Shown here one piece after another: positions 2,664 through 59,639 of a stretch of 64,000 nucleotides of DNA. Source of the stretch: a virus (taxonomy: Duplodnaviria > Caudoviricetes); IMG/VR virus record IMGVR_UViG_3300037067_002687, positions 6,734-70,733 of that record. The stretch is one strand, 5' to 3'. The position numbers and the translations under genes are program-made. Below the pieces are notes generated by a model that saw nothing but the letters and a program-made list of their open reading frames with translations, searched no databases and was not told the origin of the DNA. How positions within the stretch are numbered: position 1 is the first letter of the stretch; each line of letters starts with the position of its first letter.

Positions 2664-2685
2664 CCTCCGTCCGGCTTAATTGCTC

Positions 2686-2736: not shown

Positions 2737-2757
2737 AACCCATGAAAGAACACTACA

Positions 2758-7379: not shown

Positions 7380-7391
7380 AACTAATCCTCC

Positions 7392-7719: not shown

Positions 7720-7737
7720 TCTTCTTCCTTTACTATA

Positions 7738-7858: not shown

Positions 7859-8019
7859 ATATTTTGTAGCCGGGTAACTGACCCGCTCAACCCATAGTCG
7901 CATTACCCGGCGAGCCTCGTTACGAACGAGGTTATAGCAAAGAGGGGCGGGCGACGTCCACGTAGGGTTGGGACGTAAAGTCCACGGAGACGGGTAGGCT
8001 CGCCACGCCCCAGGATGAT

Positions 8020-9444: not shown

Positions 9445-9613
9445 GGTCGTGATGGTGCAGGTCGTGCTTCAGGTCGGCTATCTGACGCTGAAGGCGATTG
9501 AGTGTCAAGTGGAAACAAACCCACGACACGACGTTCGCCACGGTGACGAAAAGCAGGACGGTGTCCAATAGTAGTAGGTGGTCGTTTTGTGGAATCATTG
9601 TGGGTTTATCCAT
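9434..9613 (-). CDS. 59-aa membrane protein with His-rich tail
   Basis: Hand-translated MDKPTMIPQNDHLLLLDTVLLFVTVANVVSWVCFHLTLNRLQRQIADLKHDLHHHDHEP; overlaps both neighbours. Confidence 0.55.
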   Translation of the reverse strand: MDKPTMIPQNDHLLLLDTVLLFVTVANVVSWVCFHLTLNRLQRQIADLKHDLHHHDHEP

Positions 9614-21968: not shown

Positions 21969-22159
21969 AACTTCTCAATCTCCCTCCAGGAATTAAGGTA
22001 TCGGTCCACTTTATTCAGACACGTCATAATCAGCTTGTAGTAGCCTGCGGGGCTCTCTTTAGCCAGCAGGTCGAGGGCCCTTTTCGTCATCCCCAGTTGC
22101 CGGTCCACATCGTTGTGTTTGGCGTCCAGTTTCGATACTGAGGATTTCGGATTCTCCAT
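21965..22159 (-). CDS. hypothetical protein (64 aa)
   Basis: AAGGAG upstream; ATGA overlap with the NTase. Confidence 0.55.
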   Translation of the reverse strand: MENPKSSVSKLDAKHNDVDRQLGMTKRALDLLAKESPAGYYKLIMTCLNKVDRYLNSWREIEKL

Positions 22160-22367
22160 CGTCTGTTCCTTCTGTCTCCTTGGGTGGCAGTTTCATCTTG
22201 ATGAGTACGTCATGCCTTGGGCAGACGAGATTCTGTCCGACCCATCGCCACTCCGCATTGGGCAGCATCGTCTTCTGCACGACGTTGAACATCGGCAACT
22301 CTCCGCTATGCAGTGATTCCTGGGCGCCGCAGATGTCGCAGGTGAATAATTGAATGACGTTTAGCAT
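22059..22367 (-). CDS. hypothetical protein with CxxC
   Basis: FTCDICG...LVCPRH; overlaps neighbours. Confidence 0.45.
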   Translation of the reverse strand: MLNVIQLFTCDICGAQESLHSGELPMFNVVQKTMLPNAEWRWVGQNLVCPRHDVLIKMKLPPKETEGTDDGESEILSIETGRQTQRCGPATGDDEKGPRPAG

Positions 22368-22690
22368 TTACGAATCTCTCCCGTGGGAATCACCTCTACC
22401 TTGAAGTGGCTCTCTAGTAATCTCATGGTAGTGTCAGCGTCCGACAGGCACGTGTAGACTAGGGTTTGCAGTCCGATGCGATAAAGGAGCCGGTAGTCAA
22501 CAACCTCTGCTGAATCCTTAACGGGCGTTGCCTCGGGCTTGAACGTCGCACAGCTAGGCTCACGGGACTTCCACAACTGGACGTAGGTTATTGGGTATCT
22601 CAGCAACATGGACCCTCCGTCCTTGGGCCCACCAATGAAAAAGGCTCGGTAGTCGGTCGGTTCGTGCATGATAAAACATCCTTTACTCAA
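22361..22690 (-). CDS. hypothetical protein
   Basis: FIGGPKDG motif; likely start ATG 22669 after AAGGA. Confidence 0.6.
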   Translation of the reverse strand: MSKGCFIMHEPTDYRAFFIGGPKDGGSMLLRYPITYVQLWKSREPSCATFKPEATPVKDSAEVVDYRLLYRIGLQTLVYTCLSDADTTMRLLESHFKVEVIPTGEIRKC

Positions 22691-29397: not shown

Positions 29398-29450
29398 ATT
29401 ATAGCACTAAGGCGATTCGATGTCAATACCGTTTTTTGACAATTTGTCAG
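29398..29450 (-). promoter_or_regulatory. consensus sigma70 promoter + operator copy 6 (TTGACAATTTGTCAG, 29436-29450)
   Basis: - strand TTGACA (29426-29421), 17 bp, TATAAT (29403-29398) with TG; operator ~10 bp upstream of -35, inside the last codons of the giant gene. Confidence 0.85.
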
Positions 29451-35400: not shown

Positions 35401-38400
35401 GTCAAAGACAAGCCCGAGAGTGTCCACTTGCTGGGCAGAAAATGCCGCCTTCGCTTGCTCTGGAGTGAATCCAAGCCGCTCCTGGACAAACTGGTCCATC
35501 GGTCCCTGTCGTTCCTGGACCCGTTCAAGAGCTTTCGCGTAGGCTTGAGACTGACCACGCGGAATGCACGCATCCATGGCAGGATTCGTCGATGCAACCG
35601 GCGAGGCGACTTGGAAAGCATTCTCTCCGGCACTAGATACACCCAAATCCGGCGGTGCAGCAGCAATATCCTTAGCCGCCGGCATCTTGCCTTCCGCACT
35701 AGGACCTGGGGGGCCATCATCTTCTACCGCTCCTCGTCCGGCAGGAACGTCACCAGCCAATCCCACAGGCTGTTCAGTTCCAGAATCTCGTTCACGCAAT
35801 CCTTCTGGCTCTCCACCGGTTGCGGGAAGCTCCCCTGACTCAGGCCGTACCGGCTCATTAGGATGCTCTGGAACGCTGGGTGCTGGGGAAACCTCGACAG
35901 GTCCTTCGGTAGGTCCAGGAAGTCGCCCAGCTTCTCCTCCCATAGTTCCGCCACGGTCAGCGACGGGTTGTCCTGCTGTTCCGCCATCCAGGCGATTCTC
36001 TGCCCCAGACGATTCAGGAACTTCTCCCACGTCATGTCCTGGTCGGTCGGCTTCAGCGGGACCGCCAGCGGGCCCGGTACGTTCGGGGCCCACGCTAGGA
36101 GCTTCGACTGCCCCGCGATTGGCCAATTTGTCATTGTAAAGGTCCTCCCAACTGCTGTACCATTTCGGGATTCCGTTCTCATTGATGTTGTAGGGCTTCG
36201 GCCGACTGCTTGGGTAATGCCCCTTGATAACGATAACGTCAACAGGGAACGACGCCCCCTGCTTGGAGTATAAGTCTCCATCCACCGTAAAATGGTCAAC
36301 TACATTATACTCGTTGTAGAGCTTGTCGTAAAACGGTTTTCTGTTGCGGTATGCCTTTCCCCTTACGAGCGGGGTGCTTCCCTCTTTCCCCTTGGCGCCG
36401 AGAATCAAGACGGCCGACCCGTCAGACTTCATGTGCGAAAGAGCTTCTAATGCAATAGCGTGGTCCACTTGGTCGGTCTTGACGCCGTCGATGTCCCAGG
36501 CAACCTTCTTGCCGTCCGGGGTGTGAACGGTCCCGAAAGGCGGATTCGCGATAACCACGTCCTTCTGGAAAGCACCCGCCGGCTTGGAGGCATCGTTCTC
36601 GGTGGTGCTGAATCCAAGCGCCCTGAGCATGGCGGCACGGCCGGGGTCAAGCTCATTGGCGTAGGTGTGGTCCGGGTCCGCATCCATTAAGAGCATCCCG
36701 TTACCGGCAGTAGGTTCGTAGACTGACTTAGTTTTGTCGATTCCTGCTAAGCTGGACGCGACCTTCGCCAGTGGTGCCGGGGTGCAGTAGGCTTGCTTCT
36801 CGACGGAGCCGGACGTTCGGCTCGCGAGATTCGGTTGACGCTCGTAGAGGTCAAGGAGGGACTCCCAGGGGGTCTTTCCGGCGGCGGCGTTCCTCGCAGC
36901 CCTGACGACACCCTGTTCGACCGCTTCGTCAATCTCTTTGTTTAGCTTGGGATTGGTCCGGACGTCCGTACCGAGAAGCTCGCCGGCCTCTTTTCGGGCC
37001 TCAAGGATGGTTCCGTAGGACTTTCCTTTGTCGAATTGTTCCCCAAAGTGTTCGCCGAGTGCAATGCGGTTTGGTGCTTCAGGGCTTCCAAAATCTCTTG
37101 GAGTGGCTGCCGGTTCTGGTGCATTTTCGGCCTCACCTTTGACGGAAGGCTCCCCAGCGGGGGGTTCTCCGAATCGCTTATCGGCCCACATAACCGCGGA
37201 TTTCGGGACGTCCACCACCCGGCCGTCTTCTGCGCGAACGCTTAGGCTGGGGTCGTCCGGCGTGGCGTCGTACCGGACTGTCCCGACGATGTCCTCTCCC
37301 TTTGCCTTAACGCGGACCTTCTCGCCTTCAGAGTAGCCGCGCTTCCCGGTGATTCCCTCCTCTAGGTCCGAACGCAACTTCGACCGGCGCTCATCGTAGG
37401 TCGGCTGTTCGGCCGAATACTTCTCGAATCCCTCCCTGGTCCCGAGAACGGCAAAGCGCGGTTTCTCCTCCCCAACCTCGCGCAAGTCAGCCTCTCCCGG
37501 CTTCGGCAGGCCGCCCATGGTATCGACCACCACATCGCCGCCGTACTGGGCAGCAATGCGACGGGCGGTATCCTTGGACGGGATGCCTTTATCGAGAATC
37601 GTTCGACCATCCTGGACAACATCACCCGAGCGTGCGGAATCCCATTGGGGAGTCTCGCTGTTTATCGCATCTGGGGCCCGCCTGTTGGAAGCTGCATCGG
37701 CTGTCGCTGCGGCATCCCCTGGGGTGGCATTTGTGGCCTCTGGCCTTGGGGCGGCATTCCCTGTTGGGCCATTCTCTGGGGCGGGGGCACTCTCGATGCT
37801 CCTGCTCCCGGTATCGGGACTGGGCTCCCGCAATTCGGGCACTTCACCACCGACGGGCGCGGGGCTGGGCCCGACCCTGGGCGGGGTCCGAACCGACCCG
37901 GCATCCCCTGGTTCGCCGGGACTGGGACCACCACGATTGTCTTCCCGGACTTGGACTTCTTTTTGCGTATTGCCATTCTGCTCTCCTTCTTGGTTGACGG
38001 GTTGCGTGACTTGATTTTCAGCCCGCTCGACAGGCTGCCGCTCTTGTAGAGTAACAAGCCCGGCCGGCGGCGTTGGCAGGGAATTGATTCGTGCGGTCAG
38101 GTCTCCAGCCTTCAGAGCGCCAGGGGCCGACATTATCATCATGGGTCCTACGGCATGGGCAGCGGACTTCAATCCGGCCGCTCCGATGGCCATAGCGTCC
38201 GGATAGTCGGTCTGACCGGCTAACCAGCGGCCAAACTCATGGGAGGCGGCGTCGATAGCGCCGGCGCTGGCCATGATGGCGGAACCTTTCGCAGTGTGCT
38301 TTATCAGGTGGCTCGCCATGACCTCAACGGCCTTCTTTCCGACAAGGGCGTTGATTTCCTGTTGTGAGGCACCCGCACCCCAGGCGGCCTTTGACCAGAC

Positions 38401-39291
38401 GGCCCCCGGCAAGCCACCGAATAGGATAGATTGGCCTACCATGCTTCCCAGGGCGACGTAGTGGGCCGTTTCGGGGTCTAGCCCCTCCTGGATTCCTTGC
38501 GAGTAGCTGGCGTCGTAGGTGGGCTTCCCGAACACGGCTGCGGCGGCACCCGTTTGGCCCGTGAGGCTTGCGGCCAGCTTGGGCACTCCAGCCCCAATCG
38601 CTCCGGCTGTCATCTTGGTTCCGAGAGCCTCCACCGCGCGAACGGACGGGTACATAGCGGCAGCGCCGACAGCCCATTCCCTCGGGTCCAGTAGCGAAGC
38701 CTCGGGCGAAACCTCGGGGCTTATGGTGTCCCGCGTGTTGCGAATCTGGTTGAGGAATTGCTCCTGGTCGGGCTCGAAGTTTCCTACGTAACGCTCGATG
38801 GGCTTGTATACCATTTCGCCAAGAGAGCCGATGCCGGAAGCCACGGCACCGATTGACCGGTCCACGAAATTGCGTTCGTAGTATTTCGGTTCCTGGGACG
38901 CGATATGTGAAACCGCCGACAAGACATCCTTCCGCAATTCCGGAGGAGTTTGCTGCGCTACGTCAATGTCGCCCTTCAACTCACGGCCGATGTCGCTAAC
39001 CGCATTGGCGGCAAGGCCGAACACCTTGTTGGTCTTGGCGATTTCCTCCGGGGTAGCAATCGGGTCATTCATCCAGGAATCTTCGTTTCCTGGGTCCTTG
39101 GTGTAGTCGTGCGATTCGTACACTAAATTGCCATTGACCAATTTCGGAAAGAAGGTGTCCGGAAGCGGCTCCTTGGACGCCCATGGGGGCTGGACCTTCG
39201 GCGCACCCGGAAGTGGCCCCTTGTAGTCCCGCGAGTACCCAACAATCGGGTCGTCTTCCCAATTCTCAGGAACGGATTCCATTGACTCCAT
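29407..39291 (-). CDS. giant DarB-like ejection polyprotein: N6-adenine MTase + strawberry-notch SF2 helicase (3294 aa)
   Basis: MTase motif I VYEPTAGNG (~36700) and IV NPPF (36535-36546); helicase GHQTGFGKGR (~35350), SDEAH (~34925), QILGRINRTGQ (~33715); last gene of the internal-virion block. Confidence 0.85.
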   Translation of the reverse strand: MESMESVPENWEDDPIVGYSRDYKGPLPGAPKVQPPWASKEPLPDTFFPKLVNGNLVYESHDYTKDPGNEDSWMNDPIATPEEIAKTNKVFGLAANAVSDIGRELKGDIDVAQQTPPELRKDVLSAVSHIASQEPKYYERNFVDRSIGAVASGIGSLGEMVYKPIERYVGNFEPDQEQFLNQIRNTRDTISPEVSPEASLLDPREWAVGAAAMYPSVRAVEALGTKMTAGAIGAGVPKLAASLTGQTGAAAAVFGKPTYDASYSQGIQEGLDPETAHYVALGSMVGQSILFGGLPGAVWSKAAWGAGASQQEINALVGKKAVEVMASHLIKHTAKGSAIMASAGAIDAASHEFGRWLAGQTDYPDAMAIGAAGLKSAAHAVGPMMIMSAPGALKAGDLTARINSLPTPPAGLVTLQERQPVERAENQVTQPVNQEGEQNGNTQKEVQVREDNRGGPSPGEPGDAGSVRTPPRVGPSPAPVGGEVPELREPSPDTGSRSIESAPAPENGPTGNAAPRPEATNATPGDAAATADAASNRRAPDAINSETPQWDSARSGDVVQDGRTILDKGIPSKDTARRIAAQYGGDVVVDTMGGLPKPGEADLREVGEEKPRFAVLGTREGFEKYSAEQPTYDERRSKLRSDLEEGITGKRGYSEGEKVRVKAKGEDIVGTVRYDATPDDPSLSVRAEDGRVVDVPKSAVMWADKRFGEPPAGEPSVKGEAENAPEPAATPRDFGSPEAPNRIALGEHFGEQFDKGKSYGTILEARKEAGELLGTDVRTNPKLNKEIDEAVEQGVVRAARNAAAGKTPWESLLDLYERQPNLASRTSGSVEKQAYCTPAPLAKVASSLAGIDKTKSVYEPTAGNGMLLMDADPDHTYANELDPGRAAMLRALGFSTTENDASKPAGAFQKDVVIANPPFGTVHTPDGKKVAWDIDGVKTDQVDHAIALEALSHMKSDGSAVLILGAKGKEGSTPLVRGKAYRNRKPFYDKLYNEYNVVDHFTVDGDLYSKQGASFPVDVIVIKGHYPSSRPKPYNINENGIPKWYSSWEDLYNDKLANRGAVEAPSVGPERTGPAGGPAEADRPGHDVGEVPESSGAENRLDGGTAGQPVADRGGTMGGEAGRLPGPTEGPVEVSPAPSVPEHPNEPVRPESGELPATGGEPEGLRERDSGTEQPVGLAGDVPAGRGAVEDDGPPGPSAEGKMPAAKDIAAAPPDLGVSSAGENAFQVASPVASTNPAMDACIPRGQSQAYAKALERVQERQGPMDQFVQERLGFTPEQAKAAFSAQQVDTLGLVFDNHEKGLATVIGHQTGFGKGRIIAGIMEYAKRKSLIPLFLTKSPDLLSSQIDAMTEVGLNTPEKPFTFLATGDFSGRSKVKLSDGRVISQTGEEAKRICQEAAKNYLKGKGLTAKVNGKSVTFDAIFTTYPQIQTVAKSEPWRRNFLRSLASNSFVISDEAHNAGGGGTNDRAAKNHLENRAEFARTLVGDAAGVAYSTATWAKHPGVLDLYFRSGLGAAVDDPKKLPEIFHKLGIPGQQMASEMMTEGGYLTRLEQSWDGIDFHQKVIPTDLSKIDSMTEIFRSINDFDRAKEESMEAVESTIVSQGGMLSADNAVGNAGVESTQFSSILWNLVDQMIFASKADVVADEAIQHWKEGKAVFVAVDNTLESVLQGYADQNELNAGDKIDIDFRDLLQKYLDRSRRITLKGDKDDKSTWERRQLTDEELGPVALQLFEKTQGLINKFEKGVTASPIDRMIYKMRQAGMNVKEITGRQMVIDYRADGSAILTNRPDTEVGSQGKLASVAGFNDGTVDVIIGNRSSAEGISAHASEKNPVAGQKRRVMLVAQAAKNIDEFMQILGRINRTGQIREVNGQTNMPMYVLPMTDVPAELRPAATLTKKLRNLNANVTANAESAINFNVPDIINKIGDEAIIRWFSENSDAHHMIGSPLSDDVLRKQVSAGDPGAVARKLSGRVALLPVEMQQAFWDDVTAMFNSKIEELEQSGQNPLEAKTLPLEAKTTSRFKIADGNDESDNPFEHSAYVDEVDAKKVGQSMSSKEIKKRLKASGGKQGDMSDPDNRKSWTKESYETLRKSTIEYLDSQLEGVVDPDTRNARRQSMSTYFDKVTGAMRQLAPGTTITYDTMDGGIDGIVLGFSRTGKAKNPSAPSAWTVEVALADSTRVVKIPVSQIAVADPALRPSYSDFDGVLKQFDDARTTSREKRYIATGNVIAAAGKLEGVRAQPTFFTDNKGNIQRGLLLPKNFDVQQWAKNKPIVMSKSSHSMEAVEAGITLTSPDHVVSVMKSNGILVVRVPISKRTGGAYFLNKPLQEAANNEFVSRGGIKMELYVTEPDRQQAAIDALMRITSLQAESNRETARKIVGETIPTAEAPKPEGPQVRDWSDAGGSGKGPPKPPKYTSPPPDDNGEDSTRVYGSVMPAMLPSVELGGAFKNHADQIRDLFGNSHLPKLSRTTSSVRDAAFSHAYASQAARPIVADLLQKVFGNKPSKKEMADVADVLNADNILGIYDASLSSGHMKWAEDIKETHDLDALDAFVQEKLNDPKITEQVELWKTHVNPYLNELYNEVKMLDKDTPQDGRGRHTDARINLLTLDRAAKWGEFRENNTNPMPQGSGAGAGAHRNPDVRRDSYMRRAKGTGEYSNDLETNLMAVVGPRYNQATKVRFYQSLVDSRVAVLEPPRQAGRRFEFKGPEGYERIPVDLPVTDPETLQTHINERGAIWVRNDLVGETKRILNTDMKGNPLWWADILTKVQLLSQADAVSHSLNLWRTITNSQGAESTLSDVLRKIPFLSGADSAVRIVRKMSDVVNQTPDVVARTAELAKIGAIRPAYQTKWPGAKAIHAIDTASRLVLDDFFTNLVKRGSAKDTPGNRRDFINQLGVYNRRVMGKVEQNLRDYGLSPFIVAGKTMNRVARRAVLGNPGFEAASKAAATEARLVQLSKLALIPTMAAIANYMNSGSPFGRPGTPLGSIDLGDDEKGRRKILDIFQVEGLSRGLRSLGLRSLMRDVQQGRNANQVMGDMLTETIQTVMHPFTGPGIGFLSKALTGSQFMDMRGQMEAERIPEGGMAQKVENTRAAMEAQNPLMYGVGKSLARLFGVEVSGTPKEDADKAILEQAVRSYGVTTMAQPTTAAGELAKTLLTNKLGSGITEDERHKIEAKQPALAAFRKGDVKAGTEAVSGLLKSGDISHREAVNLRKKGQMTDLQWRARNLSTQELKLVWKEATQEERLSLRPLVRSRIVRKQKPEDRKALIDMANSLKTGNNPKSDKLSKNGIDIESP

Positions 39292-44455: not shown

Positions 44456-46258
44456 TTACTGCCTCTGCTTCCCACGGGGGAGAACGTTCAATGTTATCTG
44501 TTCAAGGGCCCATCGGTGCGCGGACGACAATCGCAAGGACGCCGCGCCAGAGTCAACCCTGGGATGGAAGCTACGGGACCGGCCGCCCGGAATCACGCCG
44601 GTCGCCCTCGGCTTGACCGTGGATTCAATTTCGGAACAACTACGCGACGTGTAAAGCGCCCAATTCACCGGACCGGAACCCGCGGCGGTGGTGCCGATGA
44701 TTTCGGAAATGATTCCATGATTGTAGTCGTCGCCACCCGGTCGGAAGGGACCGAGGAAGACAAAGGAATCGAACGCAATACCATCGTCCTCTTCGGTGGC
44801 ATCGTCGTATTCGCGGATGTAACCGTCCGTGCATCCCAGGAAGACGCGGTTCTCTGAGGATGGGTCTGCCGCATAGGACAACATGGACGTTGGCTGGTGG
44901 GCATCCGCTAGGACGACCGGCCAGTACCCCTTCGTTTCTCCGGTAACTTGCACCCACCAATGGGTTCCAGTAGTACCATCCGAAGGTGTTATGTTGATGT
45001 GGACTCCGCCATGGTGCCCATCGTAGCACATGACCACTGTGTTTTCGGCGGTGTCGATGTCAATCAAGTCTTCTGGGATGGCATTCCTGGATATTGGCGT
45101 CGGGTAGGTTCCTGAGCCGGGGGAAATCGAATAAAGGCCGTCCCTGGCCAAGAAGAACAGCGAGGAATCCGGCAGGCGACACCAGGAAGAAGCACCGGCC
45201 ACGCCGACACCGCGCGACAGGCAATCAAGCTGGCCGCCGGACGCCGGGTCGCCACGGAAAATCCAAAGGCTGTTTTCGCATCCCAGTAGGAGATAGTCGT
45301 CCGAGTAGGGTATCAGGGCACGAATCGGCTCTCCGGGGGTTCCAGCGGATGAGGCGGTTCCAGCGACGGCCGTTGCTGGGTCGGTAACGTCAGCGCCGTA
45401 GTCCCAGTTGGTCGGGTCCCCTTGGCGACTCATGTACCAGATATGGTCCGGCCCGGCGAGGACAAGCCTATCACGGTAAAGCGCCATCAACGGGCATCCC
45501 AAGGGGGTATTGCCAGCCGTGGGAAGCAGCATGTCCATAATTCCGGTCTTTGGGTCGAGTACCACGGGGCATCGACGAATCTCATAAGCTACCGTGCTTG
45601 TTCCGTTCGGGCAATCGAGAGTGATAGACCCGACGCCGATGGCAATGATGGCGTAGGTCCCGGTCGTGGCAGAACCGTCCTTAATGACAATCTGACAGGC
45701 CGACGAATCCATGGAAATCCCGCGTGCCGAAAAGTCCGGTATCGACGCATCCGTCAAGACGCCGTCCGTGAGAGTACCCGACAGTCCGGACGCTTCAATC
45801 GGCCCGTGGTCCGCAATGTAGAGGTTCTGCGCCCGTTCGGCAACCTGAAGACTATCCACGCTCCCATTGAGCGTTGACGTACCTAGGGCTAACTCGGAAA
45901 TCGACTCGGTCGTTATCGCTTCACCTGCCTCCGTCAATAGAAACCCAACCCCGTAGGAGATTAGGTTTCCGTCCGAAACATGATGCACCAGACCGCCGGC
46001 CGACGCCACAAACACACGACTCAGGGCACCGGCCGCATCAACCACCGACACGCCGGCCATGAATTGAACGGGCTGGGCGTTTTCGGCGGCTTGGTCGTAA
46101 ACCTTGCGTAATCCGGGGCGGCTGCCACCACGCAGCCGACGGTCGAACGTGCAGGTAGCCCGCATGTTCTGGCACGAATACGTCGTGGTCTTGTCCTGCT
46201 TTGACAAGGCACTACGGCGATTCAGTCCTGCAACCGGAAAGTCTAGGCTTGAGGCCAT
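44456..46258 (-). CDS. tail nozzle/tubular protein B (P22 gp10/T7 gp12-like)
   Basis: 600 aa; YRDRLVL...IWYMSRQGDP.NW, YSDDYLLL, LFFLARDG beta-propeller pattern. Confidence 0.75.
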   Translation of the reverse strand: MASSLDFPVAGLNRRSALSKQDKTTTYSCQNMRATCTFDRRLRGGSRPGLRKVYDQAAENAQPVQFMAGVSVVDAAGALSRVFVASAGGLVHHVSDGNLISYGVGFLLTEAGEAITTESISELALGTSTLNGSVDSLQVAERAQNLYIADHGPIEASGLSGTLTDGVLTDASIPDFSARGISMDSSACQIVIKDGSATTGTYAIIAIGVGSITLDCPNGTSTVAYEIRRCPVVLDPKTGIMDMLLPTAGNTPLGCPLMALYRDRLVLAGPDHIWYMSRQGDPTNWDYGADVTDPATAVAGTASSAGTPGEPIRALIPYSDDYLLLGCENSLWIFRGDPASGGQLDCLSRGVGVAGASSWCRLPDSSLFFLARDGLYSISPGSGTYPTPISRNAIPEDLIDIDTAENTVVMCYDGHHGGVHINITPSDGTTGTHWWVQVTGETKGYWPVVLADAHQPTSMLSYAADPSSENRVFLGCTDGYIREYDDATEEDDGIAFDSFVFLGPFRPGGDDYNHGIISEIIGTTAAGSGPVNWALYTSRSCSEIESTVKPRATGVIPGGRSRSFHPRVDSGAASLRLSSAHRWALEQITLNVLPRGKQRQ

Positions 46259-46341: not shown

Positions 46342-47538
46342 TTACGCCGCGTCGTCAAGACTGTTCGCGGCAAGGTACACCACGCGAACACGGACAAGTT
46401 GGGTGGCACCACCCGTGAACTTCTCCGTGGCAGCCGTGGAGCCGTCAGCCTTGACGGCATACAGGGCGAGAGTCTCGCCCGCATTCACCGCCCAGTCGGG
46501 AACGGTGTCAATCTTGGCGTTCTTGGTCAGAGCGCTCGTGACGCCATACTTGACCACCGAGCCGGTGATTCCAAGGCCAATCTTCGCGAGCAGGTCGTCT
46601 CCGGAGGCGTCACCAGTGATGGTTGCCTGGAGGTTTGCCTGAGCCGACAAGACAACAGCACCCGCGGGAACCGCAAGGGTCGTGTTGGTGGTGACGGCGT
46701 TCGTCAATTCGACAATCTCGTCGTAGACCTTGACCTCCAGGCCCTCAGTGGCTGTCTTGCCGAAGCGTGCGACAACGGCGGGGGTTGCGGCACCAGCTAT
46801 GGCCGTCAACGCCCCCTCGTATCCGACGTTCCGGAAATTGGAGACGTCCTTGCCTGCACTGGCGACAACCGCCTTGCTGGCAACGACCGTTCCGATAATG
46901 GCAGCATCGAGAACATTCGCCTCGGCCACCGAGATGGCCGCCGTGGACTGCAACAGATACGACGCAGCAATGCCAGGGTCGGCAAGATGGACTGCGGTGG
47001 CTTGGCCCATGGCGTCCGCATTCACCGTTACTGCCGTATTGCCGGTCTGGTCGGTGCAGGACAGTACCAGCTTTCCGCTGGCGGTCGTAGTGGGAAACAC
47101 CTGCACGGTGCCAGCGGTGGCATCCGCGCCGGCATTCACGGTCGTACCGGTCAACTCGGTCGCTGAGTACGAGGTTGCTGACACACCCGCAACGTTCGTC
47201 CCTTCGCCGGCCGCGACGCGCCAGCGATTGCCCGAGGCCGTCGGAATCGAGTGCAGCAGCACCCAGTCTCCCGCCGTGTTGAAGGTAATCGTCGTATTGC
47301 CGCCCTGGTCGTACCCGGAGGTGACAGTAAGGACGGTGTCGCCTCCATCGGTGTACATGGCGATGAGGCAGTTGAGGCCGGGACGCACCGGAACGGGCAG
47401 GACGCGAGTCTCAATGCCTGCGCTTACGAGAGGCACGACAATGAAGTCTCGGTCCACCGAAATCGACCCTGCATTGCCGGGGTCGTTTCCGACGTACTCG
47501 GACATGGACAAATCTTGCAAAAGCCTGTGGGCGCTCAT
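46342..47538 (-). CDS. virion structural protein (fibre/decoration-like)
   Basis: A/T/G/V-rich, ~398 aa from ATG 47538. Confidence 0.65.
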   Translation of the reverse strand: MSAHRLLQDLSMSEYVGNDPGNAGSISVDRDFIVVPLVSAGIETRVLPVPVRPGLNCLIAMYTDGGDTVLTVTSGYDQGGNTTITFNTAGDWVLLHSIPTASGNRWRVAAGEGTNVAGVSATSYSATELTGTTVNAGADATAGTVQVFPTTTASGKLVLSCTDQTGNTAVTVNADAMGQATAVHLADPGIAASYLLQSTAAISVAEANVLDAAIIGTVVASKAVVASAGKDVSNFRNVGYEGALTAIAGAATPAVVARFGKTATEGLEVKVYDEIVELTNAVTTNTTLAVPAGAVVLSAQANLQATITGDASGDDLLAKIGLGITGSVVKYGVTSALTKNAKIDTVPDWAVNAGETLALYAVKADGSTAATEKFTGGATQLVRVRVVYLAANSLDDAA

Positions 47539-47584
47539 ATTGTAAACCCTTTCGTTTTGGTTGCTGCGGAAGCATCCGCATTCA

Positions 47585-47902
47585 TTATTTGATTTCCGAA
47601 ATCGACGTGTAAACGGTCCCGGCGGCGTTGCCCACCATCTTGATGAAGCGAGCCCCAAGGATTGTGGACGGAAGCGCGTAACACTTACCGGCAGCCACTG
47701 TCAACGCTACTGCCGCTTCTCCGCTGTAGACCGGCAGGAATGTTCCGTCGGAGCAAGGCGCGGCATGGAACGTCAGCGTATTGATTGAACTCCCGCTAGG
47801 TACGTAGACCATCCCGTAGTTGGCGGCACCGTAAGCAAGCTCTGCGGTGGTCGTCGCGCTGTTGGTTATGGCTAGTGTTTCGTAACGGCTGTACATGAAC
47901 AA
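47585..47902 (-). CDS. small structural protein
   Basis: AGGAG RBS; beta-rich 105 aa. Confidence 0.6.
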   Translation of the reverse strand: MFMYSRYETLAITNSATTTAELAYGAANYGMVYVPSGSSINTLTFHAAPCSDGTFLPVYSGEAAVALTVAAGKCYALPSTILGARFIKMVGNAAGTVYTSISEIK

Positions 47903-47906: not shown

Positions 47907-50480
47907 CTAGTAATAAACGCCGTTGTAGGACGTTAGGTTGTCGCATTCGCGATGGTAATTGAACGTGCCGAATCCAGGACGGTCGCTGGAGTCTCGGTTG
48001 TACCCAAGGTAGGCTGGCGCCGAAGCCTTGCGGTCCTGCCCGACGGAAGCAAACAGAAGCTCCTTGAACTTCCCCGCATGACCGCCGGAAGTGGAACCCA
48101 TCAACTCCTCAGCGGCCGACAGACACGCCTCGATAATCGTCTGCGCGTGCATTTGCGCACCGAGGGGGTACTGACGGTTCGAGTCAATCGCCATCGCATT
48201 GACGCGATAGCAGAAGTCCAGGACGTAATCCCCGTCGGGAACCGGAAAGAGCCACAACTCCCAACGCAACGGCCCCTGGCCGTCCGGCTTCTTACTTTTG
48301 GTGCAAGCGTACATCGGACGCGAAGCCGAGTGGTCGTTCGCTAATCTAGCCCGGATTTGATGCTCGCCAATGATTTCGATGGGAGAATAGACGACCGACT
48401 CATTCTGAGCAAACGTGATGGGTCCAATGATAGCCGAGTAGTCTTGGGGCAAGTCGTAAATGTACGTACCCGAAACGCACTCAATCGACCCCATTGGACG
48501 GAGGAACGACCAGTCGTGACCCGCTTGCTCGCCGGGAAGAGGCAGCGGATTGTAAAATTGTCTGAGCCCGTCCTGGATAGCCATATCGACACGACGTCGC
48601 TCCTCGGTACTCCAGGCTGCAACATCCCATCCGAACCCCATGAGATTCCCCACACGCTTCAGGAGCGTCCCGTAGGTGATGTCGAGGGTTGTTTCGCCCT
48701 TGTCGGCCAGAGGCCACGTCACGTCGCTTGGTGTCTTCCGCGAGTCTGTCGTAATGCTGGCGCCCAGCAGGGCGGTGTACCGCTCTTTGAATTGGGTCCC
48801 GCCCTTGATTCGCTCCTCCGCGGCCGACATGCAGGAGGCTAGGATGGTCTCGGCGTGGTCCACTCCGCCCATCGGGTAAGGGGCATCCACCGTCAATCGG
48901 TAAGGCACCGCGCGATAACGGAAGTTGATGCTATGAACAGCGGACGGCGCCGGGTAGAAGATTGCTTCCCAGCGTTGACGCGACTGACCGTCACTCTTCT
49001 TGGCACGAATGCAGACGTACTCCGGCGGACCCGATTCGTGATGGTCCGTTAGCATATCGCGGAGTCTGTCCTCGCTGATTTCCTGGACGTGGGTTTGCTC
49101 CTCTCCGGTGGAGAAGTGCATGTCGCCGATGATGTTTCCCGTGAAGCACTCCGGCATATCGTAAGCCGACGTGCCGGCGGACGTAACGAGGGCATCCGTG
49201 GTCAGCAGGAACGACCAAACATGAGGCGGTTGACCCTCCAGGGGCTTCGGTTGATAGAATTGGCGTAGGCCCGATTGAATCAACTCGTCCACCAGGAGAA
49301 CTTGGTCCCGCGACCACTTTGACCTGTCCCAGCCGTAATCCAGGACTTGGCCGACGTGCTTCTGGATGTCAAAATACGTCAAGTCGAGCGTGAGGGTCGC
49401 ATCATGCGTGATGGGCCATGTGTCTTTCGGGACGTCCGGGGCCATGCTGCCGTCAATCTTGGCGCTGTTGGCCATGTAGGCGGCAAACCGTTCACGATGC
49501 AGGCCCGACTTGTCCGAAGACCATTCCTCGGCAAGAGCTAGGCACGACTCGATAATCGTCTTGGCGTGCATCGCCCCGCCGAGAGGATACGGCGCCAATT
49601 CCGAAAGCATCGGCGGGACAATGTCGTACCTGTAAGTCAGGGTGTGCGCGGTACGGGGCGTCGGATAAAACACAATCTCCCAGGTCTGCACGGCCATCCC
49701 CGTAGAGGACTTCGGCCGGATGGCGAAATAGGACGGGCTGCCCCACTCGCCTTTCGAGGACCGCAACAGGCGGATTTGCTGTTCGGAGATTTCAGTGGGG
49801 GGCGGAATGGCGCTGTCCGCTTCGTAGGAAAACGAACGGGCATTCCCGCCGAAGTCGGCCGGCAACTGGTAGACGCTGTTGGCGTCGGCGAGAGTGATGG
49901 TCGCTTGCGGACTCAGGAACGACCAGCGGATGGTGTTTCCGTCCTGGAGCGGTCCGGGCCAATAAAACTGGCGAAGACCATTACGAATCAAGTCCTCAAT
50001 CGTCGCCGATTCCTCGGTGGTCCATTCCGTGAAGTCTCGGGTCCAGCCAAGGTATCTGGCAATCTCTGACCGAAGCTGACCGTAGGTGACGCCCAGGTCG
50101 GCCTCTTGCTCATACAAGGCGCGGACCGGCAAGACTTGAAGCTCGAACGCTGCCGTAGCGGTGGTGGTGTCGGTCAGGGTGAAGGTGAAAACGACCTGAT
50201 AAAACCTACCGGCAACCGGCATGTAGGACGGCGGAAGCTCGTAGCGGAAGTTGTAACCTTCGGCGTCCGGTTGGTCGCCCGGCCAGGGCTGCAAGGTGTC
50301 GAATATCGAAGAAGCGGCCGACACGGTGAACGTTGAAGACAGGTCGGTGTCCAGGTCCTTGACCTTGCAGGAAATCAAGGAAATATCCACCAGCTTGAGG
50401 TCGGCGCCAAGAGACGACGACACCCTCGCCATGAGGGAAGCCGTGGAGCCGAGATAAATCTGACCTGTAACTACGGACAT
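47907..50480 (-). CDS. head-tail adaptor/ring-like protein with three tandem ~235-aa repeats
   Basis: Repeats begin at ~50087, ~49379 and ~48677 (TY...GLRQFY.P...WSFL...YP.GG..HA.TI..SC...AEE); ~130-aa beta N-domain. Confidence 0.75.
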   Translation of the reverse strand: MSVVTGQIYLGSTASLMARVSSSLGADLKLVDISLISCKVKDLDTDLSSTFTVSAASSIFDTLQPWPGDQPDAEGYNFRYELPPSYMPVAGRFYQVVFTFTLTDTTTATAAFELQVLPVRALYEQEADLGVTYGQLRSEIARYLGWTRDFTEWTTEESATIEDLIRNGLRQFYWPGPLQDGNTIRWSFLSPQATITLADANSVYQLPADFGGNARSFSYEADSAIPPPTEISEQQIRLLRSSKGEWGSPSYFAIRPKSSTGMAVQTWEIVFYPTPRTAHTLTYRYDIVPPMLSELAPYPLGGAMHAKTIIESCLALAEEWSSDKSGLHRERFAAYMANSAKIDGSMAPDVPKDTWPITHDATLTLDLTYFDIQKHVGQVLDYGWDRSKWSRDQVLLVDELIQSGLRQFYQPKPLEGQPPHVWSFLLTTDALVTSAGTSAYDMPECFTGNIIGDMHFSTGEEQTHVQEISEDRLRDMLTDHHESGPPEYVCIRAKKSDGQSRQRWEAIFYPAPSAVHSINFRYRAVPYRLTVDAPYPMGGVDHAETILASCMSAAEERIKGGTQFKERYTALLGASITTDSRKTPSDVTWPLADKGETTLDITYGTLLKRVGNLMGFGWDVAAWSTEERRRVDMAIQDGLRQFYNPLPLPGEQAGHDWSFLRPMGSIECVSGTYIYDLPQDYSAIIGPITFAQNESVVYSPIEIIGEHQIRARLANDHSASRPMYACTKSKKPDGQGPLRWELWLFPVPDGDYVLDFCYRVNAMAIDSNRQYPLGAQMHAQTIIEACLSAAEELMGSTSGGHAGKFKELLFASVGQDRKASAPAYLGYNRDSSDRPGFGTFNYHRECDNLTSYNGVYY

Positions 50481-50481
50481 C

Positions 50482-50784
50482 CTAGATACCTCTAATTGAA
50501 CCGATTGTCGTCCTGCCGCTCGATGCTATCGCCGAAACCATTCCCGGTGAGGAAATAACCGTTACTGCACCGAGCCCTCCATTGATAACTCCCGTAATCG
50601 AAAGCCTAGAGTAGGAAATCCTCTGGACTGAACCAAGGCTTCCGCTAATAACCCCCGCTATGACCTCATATTCCGGTATTAAGGTGGTGACGCTTGTCTC
50701 AGCTAACCCGTGAAGGTCCGCTGAGCGGAAGGCCCAGGCTGCCAGTGCGTTACTGCGTAATGCGTAGCTTCCTGGACGGGCCAT
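50482..50784 (-). CDS. hypothetical structural protein
   Basis: ATG 50784 overlaps the stop of the upstream gene; I/G/S-rich. Confidence 0.5.
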   Translation of the reverse strand: MARPGSYALRSNALAAWAFRSADLHGLAETSVTTLIPEYEVIAGVISGSLGSVQRISYSRLSITGVINGGLGAVTVISSPGMVSAIASSGRTTIGSIRGI

Positions 50785-51356
50785 TATGTCACCGTGTAGG
50801 TTGTCGCGGTCCTGTTCCCTGACCCGTCGTCGGTGAACCTGACTCTGTCTGTTTCTCCTGTAATTGAGACGAAAGTCTCGGTTCCTGTCTGGCCGCCGTA
50901 CACCTTGCCAAGCAAGATGGCCGCCATCAGTCGAAGCACTTGACGCAACGTAAACCCCGTCTCCACGCCGTTTGGTTTGTCCAAGTGAGCATCCGCCCCT
51001 GCGGTGGCCGTCAGCCATGTGTCCGCATCCGCGGTCTTGATGACTTTCACGTCCGACGGGAAGTAGCCGGTTGCATCCGGAATCCCCGAAACCGTTTTGA
51101 TGACAAAGGACCTTGGCTGGCAATCCGTCAGCGAGAACTTCAAACCGATGGTGTTTCCGTTTAGGTCTGCCGCCGTCAGGTCAATCTTCCAGGCGCCGAA
51201 CGTCGAATCGTAGGAGGCGGCGTTGTCGCAAGCGGCTGGGGTGTCGTCGATGATTCTTTTGCAGGTTGGGGTGCCCGTGGTGATTTCGCTACCGTCGGAC
51301 GTCTTAATGAACGGTCCAATCACGAATCCCGGAACAGCGGTGTTCTTTTTGAACAT
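50784..51356 (-). CDS. virion structural protein
   Basis: 190 aa, T/D/G-rich, TAATG-coupled. Confidence 0.6.
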   Translation of the reverse strand: MFKKNTAVPGFVIGPFIKTSDGSEITTGTPTCKRIIDDTPAACDNAASYDSTFGAWKIDLTAADLNGNTIGLKFSLTDCQPRSFVIKTVSGIPDATGYFPSDVKVIKTADADTWLTATAGADAHLDKPNGVETGFTLRQVLRLMAAILLGKVYGGQTGTETFVSITGETDRVRFTDDGSGNRTATTYTVT

Positions 51357-54859: not shown

Positions 54860-55900
54860 TTAGGCGGAGGTGCTGCCAACCCAGCAATTACGCCGGTTGT
54901 AGCAGATGTAGTTCATCCAGTTGTCGATGTGGACTTCCCGGACGGTGTGCTGGCGGGCCCCAATCTTCGGCGGGTTACGCCGCATGGTGGCACCCTTCTT
55001 CACGAACGGACGGAATACCTTCCAGTTGATGCCGTACAGCGGGTTGGTCGAATCGTTCGCCGTGAGGTACGGCACCCAACGAATCGGCACGCCGCCGACG
55101 GTCACGCGGCCGATGAACCGGGCGACGTCGCTGCCAAGGTTGTCGTTGCGTGTCTCCGCAAGACGCTCCAGGGCTTCCTGCACCGCGTAGGTCGTGAAGA
55201 TGTTGTACTCCGCCTTGCCGAACCCAAGCTCCGGATGGGGCACGGGCGGCTTGAAGCTGGTGTAGGCCAGCGACTTTTTGATTTTCTTGACCAAGTCCTC
55301 GGCCGTGATGGATGTGTACTGGAACGCCCAGTTTTTCCATCGCGGGTACTCGGTCGCGTCGATGCCGGCGGCTCCGGCGGTAAACCCCGAAGGATTCCCA
55401 CCATTGAATCCGCCATCTGGGGTGGCGATACTCTTCTGCACCCAGAAGGGGATGCCCATGGGCCGCGTGTCGCTCGTGCCGGTGGGGGCCGTCCAGAGGT
55501 TCTCTTCGTTCAACTCAGCCAAGTCGCTCATGGCGGCGTGGTCGCGGAGAGTCAACTCCTTGATGATGGTCTCCCGGTCCGACTGGAACAGGTCCTCGTA
55601 GATGTCATACGAGAAGTTGGCGGTCTGCATCGCCCAAGGGACCTTCGCGGAAATCGTCAGGTCCTCGACCTTCGTGATGTCCTGCGCGTACATGCCAGTG
55701 TTGCGGGCCGTGCCGGTGTTCTTCGTCTTTACCTGGAACTTGATGGTCTCGCCGCCCTCTTCGACGACCTTCTTGTCGTCAATGAGGTCCGAAGAGATGT
55801 AGTCCTGGTATTCGAGCGCCAAATCCGTCCACTTCACCCGTTTCAGCAACGGAAGGGTCAGATTGACAAAATCATCAACAAGATTGGGTGTCAAAGCCAT
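54860..55900 (-). CDS. major capsid protein (HK97 fold)
   Basis: 346 aa after the scaffold; AAGGAGG RBS; GGETIKF, GIPFWV, Y.C.NRR pattern; followed by a terminator. Confidence 0.85.
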   Translation of the reverse strand: MALTPNLVDDFVNLTLPLLKRVKWTDLALEYQDYISSDLIDDKKVVEEGGETIKFQVKTKNTGTARNTGMYAQDITKVEDLTISAKVPWAMQTANFSYDIYEDLFQSDRETIIKELTLRDHAAMSDLAELNEENLWTAPTGTSDTRPMGIPFWVQKSIATPDGGFNGGNPSGFTAGAAGIDATEYPRWKNWAFQYTSITAEDLVKKIKKSLAYTSFKPPVPHPELGFGKAEYNIFTTYAVQEALERLAETRNDNLGSDVARFIGRVTVGGVPIRWVPYLTANDSTNPLYGINWKVFRPFVKKGATMRRNPPKIGARQHTVREVHIDNWMNYICYNRRNCWVGSTSA

Positions 55901-57839: not shown

Positions 57840-59639
57840 CTAACTTCCTTGGATAGGTTGCATTCCGCCGGACTGTTGCGGCTGTCGAGCCATATCGAGC
57901 CACGCCTGCTGCTTCTCAATGGCGCGGTTCTCCGGCGTTCCCCCGGTGGCTACGGATTTACGGACGTACTCACGCGACGTCTGCGCGGGGGCGGACGGCG
58001 GGGTGGCCGGGCCTAGGTCGGGAGGCGAGCCAGCGTCCGGCGAGGAAAACTGAATCACGTCCCTGAGACGCGGAACACGGAGAAGCTCGGCAAGCATTTC
58101 CGTGAGCGACTGCATGTTAATCTGCCCGGACTGGGCCGCAAGCGTCTGGGCCATGGGCATGTAGAGCTTCTGGATAAGCGCCAGCACGGTCTGCACCTTC
58201 TGCTCTGGCGGCTGATAGGGCATCGAATGGACATCGACGGTCAGGTCGTAGTCAAAGAAGGTGCCCATGCGTCGTTCTGGCGTCCAGGTGGCATCAATGC
58301 TCATCCCTTCGGCGCCTGGTATTGGCATCCGGGCCGGGATAACCTTGACCGCGTCGTTCCAGAGGAGCCAGCCGAGATTGCGGACCACTTTCGTCGTGGA
58401 TTCGTGGGCCTGCATCCGCATGGACGCCTCCTTTTTCGAGGCACCGCTGGCGATAATCTGTTCCTGGCCCAGGGTGTCGCCCTGCTGCCCAAGACCAAGC
58501 AGGGAGGGGAGATTGCCGGCCATGCGGTCCAACAACTCGACCGATTGAATCAAGAAGGCGTGACCCGAGGCATCGGCCCCTCCCATCTTCAGGACTCCTA
58601 TGTCTTTCGTGTCGGCTACGCACACCCAGTTGCCATCGTCGGTTCTCTGGACCTTGGCAGCGTCGTCCGCGGCGGCCGGGGTGTAGGTGTAGACGTCCTT
58701 CTGCCGGCGAGCCTGACGCGATTGCTTGCGAATCAGGTTGTTGCACAACTGGCAAAGACTGCGCAGGTGGGAAGCGGGAGAGGCCGGCATAATGTTGTCC
58801 GGCACGTCATTGAACGAGAGCTTGTGATAGGGCCCAAGCTCCGGGCCGTCCCAACCGAAATCCGTCAGTACGCCGCCCTTCCCTTGGAATCGCATCTGCC
58901 CATCCATGGCAAACGTGTAGATTCGCTTCTCTCGGGGAATCCAGACGTCCATCAGGTCAATCATGGGCTCGACGTCGTCTTGGTCGGTCTGGTAGCCCTT
59001 GGAGAGCATTTCCGTGCGCATCGTCAACTCAGACATCGTCGCCTTATTGGTCGGCGCCAACTCCTCAACGACGCGCGGGTCGTAGATGGGGTCCTCCAGG
59101 GTGGAGAATGGCACACGATAGGCGTCGGCCGCATACATCATCTGGTCCCAGCGGGTCGCCGTCATGTCGTGGACCCAATCGTCGATGGACACGCACGACA
59201 CCGTCGGTGTTCCGGGGTCGATGCTCTTGCCCCACAACTCGACCTCTCCGATGTCGGACAAATGGACCTTGAGGATTCCGATGCAGAAGAAGGCGTTCTT
59301 CACCCACTGCCGCAAGACCTCTTCGATGCGAATCTCTTCGAGCATCTTATTGATGGCCACTGCGTACTGCTGCGAAAAGAACTTCAGATTCGAGTGGGGA
59401 GTCTCCACTGTGACCCAGGGACGATTCGCCACTAGGGACATGGTGTAAGCATCCACGGCTTGCCCCATGAGATTCAGGTACGTCTCGTAGCGCGGACGCT
59501 CCGATTCATGCCCGTACCCAGAACCGGCGTACTCTTCCACCAATGCTTGATTGATTCGCCGGAATGGTTCCAGCTTACGCCACGATGCGTTCATGGCCTT
59601 AAACAGTCTCCAGCGATGCTCCTCTTTATTCAGGTTCAT
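57840..59639 (-). CDS. portal protein
   Basis: 599 aa directly after TerL; helical, podovirus/P22-like size; Q/P-rich barrel-type C-terminus. Confidence 0.85.
   Translation of the reverse strand: MNLNKEEHRWRLFKAMNASWRKLEPFRRINQALVEEYAGSGYGHESERPRYETYLNLMGQAVDAYTMSLVANRPWVTVETPHSNLKFFSQQYAVAINKMLEEIRIEEVLRQWVKNAFFCIGILKVHLSDIGEVELWGKSIDPGTPTVSCVSIDDWVHDMTATRWDQMMYAADAYRVPFSTLEDPIYDPRVVEELAPTNKATMSELTMRTEMLSKGYQTDQDDVEPMIDLMDVWIPREKRIYTFAMDGQMRFQGKGGVLTDFGWDGPELGPYHKLSFNDVPDNIMPASPASHLRSLCQLCNNLIRKQSRQARRQKDVYTYTPAAADDAAKVQRTDDGNWVCVADTKDIGVLKMGGADASGHAFLIQSVELLDRMAGNLPSLLGLGQQGDTLGQEQIIASGASKKEASMRMQAHESTTKVVRNLGWLLWNDAVKVIPARMPIPGAEGMSIDATWTPERRMGTFFDYDLTVDVHSMPYQPPEQKVQTVLALIQKLYMPMAQTLAAQSGQINMQSLTEMLAELLRVPRLRDVIQFSSPDAGSPPDLGPATPPSAPAQTSREYVRKSVATGGTPENRAIEKQQAWLDMARQPQQSGGMQPIQGS

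Follow-up and report, generated by a model that had tools for sequence, protein, structure and literature searches.

The stretch of viral DNA analysed here (the window, 64,000 nucleotides), which comes from an uncultured phage with a short tail, carries a virion gene module on the minus strand in the order TerL, portal, capsid, adaptor, fibre-like protein and tail hub, and this synteny is kept in relatives. The adaptor gene is placed as in the preliminary description, with capsid genes on one side and the nozzle/tail-hub gene on the other, a position that suggests its product is a component of the virion. Coordinates of the genes and of the segments of the adaptor protein are collected in Table 1.

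Table 1. Features of the adaptor protein and of the virion genes around it in the window
Feature	Coordinates	Strand	Basis
Portal protein, 599 aa	57840..59639	-	Weak Pfam SU10_portal match, E 1.9e-4
Major capsid protein, 346 aa	54860..55900	-	PHROG 9953 major head protein, E 7.7e-6
Adaptor ORF	47907-50480	-	Stop-free translation, 857 aa, ~93 kDa
N-terminal accessory beta-sandwich, Ig/FN3-like (residues 1-125)	50106..50480	-	AF2, VIA-align
Adaptor repeat R1, first/distal-type (residues 126-361)	49398..50105	-	Pfam, fold, tree grouping
Adaptor repeat R2, middle-type (residues 362-595)	48696..49397	-	Pfam, fold, tree grouping
Adaptor repeat R3, last/portal-proximal type (residues 596-820)	48021..48695	-	Pfam, fold, clade
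C-terminal tail (residues 821-857), LGYNRD...YNG motif	47910..48020	-	Motif comparison; portal-embracing role inferred
Tail-fibre-like protein, 438-aa ORF	46342..47658	-	Weak cluster match, neighbour conservation
Tail hub/nozzle, 600 aa	44456..46258	-	AF2 pTM 0.80; Foldseek

The portal and the tail hub are expected to be the proximal and distal partners, respectively, of an adaptor stack. The top Foldseek match of the tail hub is the Pa223 tail hub (9nwi_Y, gp59; E 8.6e-19, TMt 0.72), with further matches to the nozzles of HRP29, SU10, PhiM1, P22 (gp10) and T7 (gp12). The 438-aa ORF, whose start is probably at residue 52, matches phage tail-fibre C-terminal domain clusters (Atlas features) with a score of 0.87, which we treat as a mere lead; its first ~120 aa are conserved beside the adaptors of four related loci (L004, L012, L013 and L022). 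Also next to the tail genes lies the gene of a protein of 3294 aa that combines methyltransferase and helicase domains; ejection of this protein into the host is possible.

The adaptor protein consists of a beta domain followed by three tandem repeats of ~235 aa, all in one uninterrupted 857-codon frame, and a profile search of the whole 70.7-kb record found no adaptor unit beyond these three. The GLRQFY motif recurs at residues 168, 404 and 638, giving spacings of 236 and 234 aa that agree with the 708 and 702 nt reported previously, and the consensus pattern given there fits a three-way alignment of the repeats. In pairwise BLASTP comparisons, R1 and R2 share 35% identity over 232 aa (E 5e-47), R1 and R3 33% (E 1e-38), and R2 and R3 38% (E 1e-50); judged from the amino-acid sequences, this similarity far exceeds chance. 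At the DNA level only short stretches of 60-73% similarity survive, spaced 708 and 711 nt, and the duplication is therefore taken to be old. Tandem Repeats Finder detected no repeat in the DNA, as expected for units so diverged. The beta domain of ~130 aa noted earlier ahead of the repeats is likewise recovered, and is predicted to be a beta sandwich: the AF2 model contains strands only, at moderate pLDDT (50-75), and VIA-align matches it to FN3 and Ig domains with Z of 6-7. No similarity to the repeats was found by BLASTP, and a comparable N-terminal extension of ~100 aa occurs in a subset of relatives, whatever their copy number.

The whole protein matches the Pfam family PF24175 (SU10_adaptor) in three stretches with 111.8 bits (E 7.5e-32), and each repeat scores above the cut-off of 27 bits (R1 52.4, R2 37.8, R3 32.8). 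In the AF2 models, every repeat is a four-helix bundle plus beta-sandwich, with the order a1-a2, beta-sandwich, a3-a4 and a pLDDT of 80-90. The repeats superpose on the adaptors of A4, Pa223, VP1, SU10, GP4, KHP30 and T7 over ~170-205 residues with Z of 8-14. R1 matches Pa223 gp63 (9nwi_A, Z 13.4), SU10 gp11 (7z47_A, Z 12.6) and T7 gp11 (6r21_M, Z 10.2); for R2 the matches are the adaptor of P-SCSP1u (Z 9.3) and one of the crAss001 ring proteins (7qoj_F, Z 8.2), and for R3 the adaptors of cyanophage A4 (9k09_d, Z 14.2) and of VP1 (Z 12.9). A Foldseek comparison of the adaptor model with solved structures, which gave E values down to 8.8e-7, returned both podovirus adaptors and crAss001 rings. 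The adaptor fold proposed in the preliminary description is thus borne out for each repeat as one of the T7/SU10 type. Searches of PDB sequences with phmmer and with a profile retrieved no adaptor, so the link to solved structures rests on Pfam and fold; legume-lectin matches in that search (E 0.15-0.5) were set aside as noise.

The model of the whole chain (pTM 0.46) shows no confident packing between domains, and the linkers, which span ~21-22 residues from a4 to the next a1, have low pLDDT. The AF2 monomer is neutral on stacking and cannot choose between axial and lateral packing. Linker length was also considered as a packing argument and discarded, being compatible with both.

The three repeats belong to different positional classes. 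In a tree of the domains, 97 of 106 last repeats, R3 among them, form a separate clade, and first and middle repeats together with the domains of the sampled single-copy proteins make up the other. R1 clusters with first repeats from relatives, and R2 with their middle repeats. Single-copy proteins from the related loci score about equally with class HMMs of the first and last types. Additionally, a 37-aa tail follows R3 only, and its LGYN.D...YNG motif recurs in single-copy relatives: a regular expression found it in 4/10 single-copy proteins and 41/82 last repeats, and in 0/122 inter-repeat linkers. As far as the sequences indicate, there is one portal-type tail per chain, always behind the last repeat and homologous to the tails of single-copy adaptors. 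Its pLDDT is low, as expected of an arm that orders only in assembly, and by analogy with T7, SU10 and Pa223 it may embrace the portal.

The confinement of the portal-type tail and of a distinct clade to the last repeat would also suit a tail in which only the C-terminal repeat forms a ring, while the remaining adaptor domains, together with the Ig-like one, decorate the exterior of the tube or serve there as a collar or fibre dock. The flexible linkers and the lack of fixed inter-domain packing in AF2 are in keeping with such an arrangement, as is the beta-sandwich of the adaptor fold, which is the fibre dock in SU10 and T7. We nevertheless consider it unlikely. The best conserved segment in all three repeats is a3-a4 (PLGG..HAETI..SCL.AAE ... 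F...L.AS...D), whose helices line the channel and belong to the bundle; such conservation would be expected if ring-wall formation had been retained in every repeat. In every solved multi-adaptor phage, moreover, the paralogous units are coaxial rings; free-standing first-type domains with the full fold also exist; and seven full domains hung from each of 12 chains, as relatives would require, would be very bulky.

A search for related loci with a single protein as query found none, and a query built from the three-repeat alignment found loci in viral contigs, with one MAG match only among genomes. The triplication proved to be one case within a series: fused copies number 1, 2, 3, 4, 5, 6 or 7 among 162 relatives. 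Counts drop steadily with copy number, and neither divisors of 12 nor even numbers stand out. The top-150 relative list was ordered by summed score, a ranking that puts multi-copy proteins ahead, and its proportions therefore do not reflect population frequencies. The ORFs with 5 and with 7 copies are uninterrupted and sit in the interior of long contigs; the contig of the 5-copy locus L004 also carries an integrase gene, pointing to possible prophages. One 4-copy protein (P0003) counts among the nearest relatives of 3-copy proteins, and its duplicated repeat is the middle one (r2/r3); another relative (P0022) has an internal duplication r2-r4. By sequence comparison, extra copies come from the duplication of internal repeats.

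Fused and split forms also interchange, to judge from gene structure. Locus L014 encodes a first-type and a last-type domain as two adjacent ORFs (1+1). Locus L029, whose capsid protein is 58% identical to that of the window, encodes a separate first-type adaptor and a fused pair (1+2), three domains altogether. The split point falls exactly in the linker in both. Homology of portal, capsid and nozzle persists in phages with 1, 3, 5 or 7 copies: the portal of the window is 30-56% identical to portals of loci with 1-copy, 3-copy and 1+2 adaptors, the capsid protein is 51-66% identical to those of relatives with 1, 3 and 5 copies, and homologues of the tail hub adjoin adaptors of 1, 3, 5 and 7 copies.

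Two architectures had been put forward for the triplicated protein, twelve chains forming stacked rings or four chains forming one pseudo-12-fold ring; the first is favoured by the present data and the second is not. The arithmetic fits four chains with three lateral domains each (3 x 4 = 12), and copy numbers of 2, 4 and 6 divide 12 too, which would allow 12/n chains in relatives. Neighbouring subunits could be bridged by the ~20-residue linker, and adjacent SU10 adaptors, which serve six fibres, already differ in conformation. The four-chain ring is disfavoured, however, because relatives have 5 and 7 copies, in complete ORFs, and these numbers do not divide 12; because each chain bears just one portal-type tail, so that 8 of the 12 portal sites would go unfilled; and because close relatives differ in having 3 or 4 copies, the fourth by duplication of the middle repeat, or in being fused or split, as in the 1+2 set. 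Furthermore, a hexameric nozzle would meet non-equivalent domain pairs, yet both nozzle and portal are conserved in phages of different copy number. Of the arrangements considered, this is the least probable, and we give it almost no weight.

The split loci bear on another reading, that the product is a polyprotein cut in the linkers into ring proteins that stack as in crAss001, GP4 and phi24B, the fusion ensuring equal amounts. L014 and L029 encode the same domains separately, divided where such cuts would fall, and a WP motif common to half of the linkers could be a processing or docking site. In L014, however, the WP motif is the N-terminus of the downstream protein, which suits an N-terminal arm and not a cleavage site; no protease was noted among the neighbouring genes, and we know of no comparable processing of tail proteins. 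Cleavage is thus very unlikely, and its outcome would be stacked rings all the same.

The arrangement that we regard as probable is a fused multi-ring adaptor of 12 chains, in which each domain contributes to one dodecameric ring and the three rings are coaxial. Indirect support for coaxial dodecameric stacking comes from the copy numbers of 5 and 7, the single tail per chain, the conserved partners and the internal duplications. Twelve 857-aa chains would assemble beneath the portal, each adaptor domain forming a ring with the same domain of neighbouring chains, to give a tail barrel of ~14-18 nm that connects the portal to the hexameric tail hub. The chains would run from the distal end towards the portal, with the Ig-like domain and R1 by the nozzle and fibres, R2 as the middle ring and R3 as the ring under the portal, which its free C-terminal tail would embrace as in single-copy adaptors; the case for this polarity depends on the tail motif, which the regular expression detected in about half of last repeats. 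The ~20-residue linkers would replace the C-terminal arm that occupies the ring-ring interface in Pa223. Repeat number would set ring number, and hence barrel length.

A further reading, to which we assign an even chance, is that repeat number is a heritable, hard-wired ruler of tail length, with 12 continuous chains threading all rings. If so, gain or loss of one ~235-aa repeat would change the barrel by one ring, or ~5-6 nm, and seven-repeat relatives would have tube-like tails of 30-40 nm without a tail-tube protein or tape measure, and long-tailed morphology would have been reached from the short-tailed form by a route of its own.

The podovirus tail is usually described as a single adaptor ring and a nozzle. 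The structures of crAss001, GP4, phi24B and Pa223 show the adaptor ring multiplied to lengthen the tail, and since stacked adaptor-fold rings are solved in these four phages, the suggestion of a new tail architecture was overstated. What is new is the covalent fusion of rings and a repeat number that varies from 1 to 7. The family of the window would add a third genetic solution, with every ring fused into one chain, and it offers a natural series of 1 to 7 repeats in which fused and split forms occur together. Stacking as proposed would mean that the repeat count directly encodes tail length, and that covalent linkage fixes stoichiometry and ring order. The series is also a ready test set for comparing tail length with host envelope thickness or cargo storage. 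Literature searches on fused or tandem adaptors and on PF24175, which covered few subscription journals, found no description of a fused multi-adaptor protein. The whole protein and a 2-copy relative gave zero tblastn matches in 50,697 phage records, and the family seems absent from cultured phages. It is a large family, with 2436 clusters at 50% identity, and a common architecture of environmental phages may have gone unstudied.

Single-ring adaptors such as SU10 gp11 (the founder of PF24175), T7 gp11 and the KP32 tail tubular protein A have a helix bundle, a beta 'fibre dock' and a C-terminal embracing arm; the window protein is organised alike, with the tail behind R3 as the putative arm, and its repeats match their fold with Z of 9-12.6. 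In contrast to the window protein, these adaptors have one domain per chain and form one ring per virion.

In crAss001, five dodecameric rings from four paralogous genes span 23 nm, and the ring fold comprises three conserved helices and a beta-sandwich (PMC10172136). The repeats match rings R1-R5 (gp43, gp40, gp35, gp34) structurally (7qoj_E/F, 7qog_B), and in crAss001, too, paralogous adaptor-fold units stack as dodecameric rings that lengthen a podovirus tail. The number of ring genes varies among crassviruses, as repeat number does among relatives of the window protein. Unlike the window repeats, the crAss001 rings are separate, unfused polypeptides from separate genes, 15-31% identical. 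Their three-helix description differs from the AF2 model of the window repeats, in which two helix pairs, a1-a2 and a3-a4, flank the beta-sandwich, and crAss001 also has different capsid, muzzle and hub proteins.

GP4, a Ralstonia phage, has two adaptor rings from two genes (bioRxiv 10.1101/2025.06.11.659172), and the Stx phage phi24B has two adaptor genes, gp64 and gp62 (bioRxiv 10.64898/2026.04.10.717836). In both (gp81/gp82 in GP4), two diverged paralogues form two dodecameric rings, and the distal ring makes the 12-to-6 transition to the nozzle, a specialisation that parallels the first-type/last-type split in the window family. Both GP4 chains (8jov_2 and 8jov_G) match the adaptor model. 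In contrast, the GP4 and phi24B rings come from separate genes and number two at most (the phi24B preprint puts the maximum at three), whereas up to seven units are fused here.

Pa223 (Bruynoghevirus) resembles the window phage at both ends of the comparison, with gp63 the best or near-best match of R1 and gp59 the best match of the tail hub, although neither tblastn nor a PDB profile search found sequence similarity to Pa223. In Pa223, portal and hub are separated by two coaxial dodecameric rings of gp63, both from one gene, and the C-terminal 14 residues of the lower ring lie at the ring-ring interface (bioRxiv 10.1101/2025.06.11.659172). The single-domain gene of Pa223 is used twice, as 24 copies in two conformations, whereas the window protein fuses three diverged domains (33-38% identical).

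The window is part of an IMG/VR virus record (70,733 bp, 57% GC) that is estimated to be ~80% complete. In the adaptor, copies of the GLRQFY motif lie at residues 168, 404 and 638, which reproduces the spacing of 236 and 234 residues reported in the preliminary description. With the chain divided at residues 126, 362 and 596, the resulting segments R1, R2 and R3 can be aligned end to end, with identities of 35% between R1 and R2 (E 5e-47), 33% between R1 and R3 (E 1e-38) and 38% between R2 and R3 (E 1e-50). At the DNA level, 60-73% identity is left, in short stretches only, and Tandem Repeats Finder detected no repeat of the adaptor's period. These comparisons confirm the triplication and show it to be old. 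No similarity to the repeats was seen in residues 1-125.

Features of the window and of three related contigs (window positions unless a contig is named; the first column gives the order of the module genes)
Order	Feature	Position	Strand	Remark
1	Large terminase		minus	PHROG 2
2	Portal	57840-59639	minus	SU10_portal match, weak
3	Major capsid protein	54860-55900	minus	PHROG 9953
4	Several small genes		minus	
5	Adaptor	47907-50480	minus	857 residues, stop-free translation
6	105-aa gene		minus	
7	Fibre-like protein		minus	a lead only
8	600-aa protein	44456-46258	minus	tail hub by predicted fold
	190-aa ORF	50784-51356	minus	directly upstream of the adaptor
	~100-aa gene	50482-50784	minus	likely reading frame
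	3294-aa ORF	29407-39291	minus	
	L014 (IMG/VR contig)	2276-3867		split adaptor set
	L029 (Logan SRR35795014 contig)	7282-9572		split adaptor set
	L004 (5-copy contig)	21406-22512		tyrosine integrase

The 857-residue protein matches Pfam family PF24175 (SU10_adaptor; E 7.5e-32) in three stretches, and when this family was searched on the DNA, R1 (52.4 bits), R2 (37.8 bits) and R3 (32.8 bits) each scored above the cut-off of 27 bits alone. An AlphaFold2 model, computed from an alignment of 23 three-copy relatives, has a mean pLDDT of 77 (10-residue block means mostly ~75-90 in the repeats) and a monomer pTM of 0.46, with disordered linkers. Every repeat is predicted to contain, in order, two helices, a beta-sandwich that includes one short helix, and two long helices. 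In T7-type adaptors, the two ends of the chain together form a lower four-helix domain, a beta-sandwich lies above it, and a C-terminal arm extends up the portal (ΦXacm4-11 preprint; SU10, PMC9509320); in the model, the element order of each repeat is that of the T7-type topology. The adaptor fold proposed for the repeats is borne out by Foldseek, which ranks adaptor chains of SU10, VP1, Pa223, A4 and GP4 and ring proteins of crAss001 highest in the PDB. VIA-align matches, each covering most of the target chain, include R1 with Pa223 gp63 (Z 13.4), SU10 gp11 (Z 12.6) and T7 gp11 (Z 10.2), R2 with the P-SCSP1u adaptor (Z 9.3) and a crAss001 ring protein (Z 8.2), and R3 with the cyanophage A4 adaptor (Z 14.2). 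Similarity to FN3/Ig domains (Z about 7) is seen in the first 125 residues.

The structure of the 600-residue protein was predicted with the help of 12 homologues encoded in related loci (pTM 0.80). In the PDB, the model is matched best by gp59, the tail hub of Pa223 (E 8.6e-19, TMt 0.72), followed by nozzle or hub proteins of SU10, PhiM1, T7 and P22. Based on the repeat fold, the module context and this hub match, the 857-residue protein is assigned as the adaptor of a podovirus-type tail, in agreement with the initial proposal; Pa223 is the closest known counterpart of both adaptor and hub.

Over its first ~91 residues, the 190-residue ORF shares 32-34% identity with the N-terminal extension fused to single-copy adaptors in two related loci, L012 (E 2e-7) and L023 (E 4e-6); this stretch is not similar to the N-terminal domain of the window's adaptor. 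It seems that the accessory beta domain exists in two forms, as a stand-alone gene and as a fusion. A 213-residue ORF with a TTG start overlaps the 190-residue ORF in a different frame, and a gene of ~100 residues is more plausible here; its ATG at 50784 and the stop of the preceding gene overlap, and only 1 nt separates its end from the adaptor ATG, so that the genes upstream of the adaptor look like a translationally coupled chain. At the position of the window's 3294-residue ORF, relatives have genes of similar magnitude: L029 encodes a 5025-residue protein with ART-PolyVal and ParB domains, and the related locus L027 a 2961-residue protein with a Sigma70_r2 match. The window's product is possibly a polyvalent protein that is ejected.

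With R2 as the query, phmmer matched 2436 proteins among 1.84 billion cluster representatives (E <= 1e-3). Repeats were counted with a custom HMM in 162 retrieved proteins, a set in which multi-copy proteins are over-represented because the list was ranked by summed score; one to seven fused copies, all complete, are found in 12, 83, 24, 6, 4, 1 and 1 proteins, respectively, and proteins with partial copies are additional. The survey of relatives suggested at the outset yielded this series. The 5-copy (1138 residues) and 7-copy (1683 residues, on six contigs) proteins are encoded by unbroken ORFs located centrally in contigs of 48-62 kb, adjoining capsid and nozzle homologues. Single-copy loci have only one adaptor gene each, and portal, capsid and nozzle are homologous among phages with 1, 3, 5 and 7 copies. 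Two metagenomic proteins differ in layout: P0020 (1625 residues) has five ~300-residue repeats, each with an insertion, after a ~100-residue N-terminal domain, and P0076 (764 residues) has several partial repeats, containing only part of the domain, before one full domain. Since L004 carries a tyrosine integrase, some members of the family may be temperate. No match to the adaptor was found in 50,697 deposited phage genomes, and the only counterparts in BFVD are a few multi-domain entries, which come from uncultured viruses.

Among 272 domains placed in a tree (106 first, 49 middle and 106 last repeats, and 11 from the single-copy proteins sampled), 97 of the 106 last repeats fall in one clade; 105 of the 106 first repeats, 41 of the 49 middle ones and every single-copy domain belong to the other. 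An LGYNGD...YNG motif follows the last repeat in 41 of 82 proteins and occurs in 4 of 10 single-copy tails and in none of 122 inter-repeat linkers, half of which carry a WP motif. The three repeats are orthologous position by position among the closest relatives. The extra copy of the 4-copy protein P0003 is a duplicated middle repeat, and internal repeats have expanded independently in the P0022, P0019 and P0007 lineages. That the last repeat alone forms a ring, with the other domains peripheral, is considered unlikely.

The adaptor set is divided between ORFs in two loci, with an upstream protein of the first type lacking the tail and a downstream protein of the last type bearing it. In L014, two neighbouring ORFs in different frames encode one domain apiece, the upstream one first-type and the downstream one last-type. 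They are separated precisely at the linker, and the WP motif opens the downstream protein. This locus represents either two genes or one frameshifted two-copy gene. In L029, whose capsid and portal are 58% and 45% identical to those of the window, a free-standing 239-residue first-type adaptor without the portal tail precedes a fused pair, and its stop overlaps the start of the two-domain adaptor; the same three domains are here divided 1+2. Cleavage of the fused chain, as a polyprotein, into individual ring proteins appears improbable.

The data are most simply explained by 12 chains building three coaxial rings. In this arrangement, which is probably correct, R3 and the C-terminal tail would occupy the portal end, R1 and the Ig-like domain the end with the hub and fibres, and the linkers would stand in for the inter-ring C-terminal arm. 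Of the two architectures originally offered, stacked rings are thus favored, while four chains closing one pseudo-12-fold ring fit poorly and are very improbable: copy numbers of 5 and 7 are not divisors of 12, two thirds of the portal sites would be left without a tail, and close relatives have changed the copy number or split the chain and have retained the portal and nozzle.

Stacking of the adaptor fold is seen in published structures (PMC10172136; 10.1101/2025.06.11.659172; 10.64898/2026.04.10.717836). Four paralogous genes of crAss001 give five stacked dodecameric rings spanning 23 nm (PMC10172136). One Pa223 protein forms two coaxial dodecamers (12 nm), in which the C-termini of the upper ring bind the portal and those of the lower ring lie at the ring-ring interface; GP4 has two adaptor genes (10.1101/2025.06.11.659172). 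phi24B also has two, and its distal ring handles the 12-to-6 transition (10.64898/2026.04.10.717836). Since such multi-ring stacks are known, the fused adaptor is, contrary to the initial expectation, not a categorically new architecture. The literature searched, whose coverage was incomplete, described neither rings fused into a single polypeptide nor a repeat series from 1 to 7 copies. The rings of crAss001, GP4 and phi24B come from separate genes, whereas in the window three adaptor domains are carried by one polypeptide.
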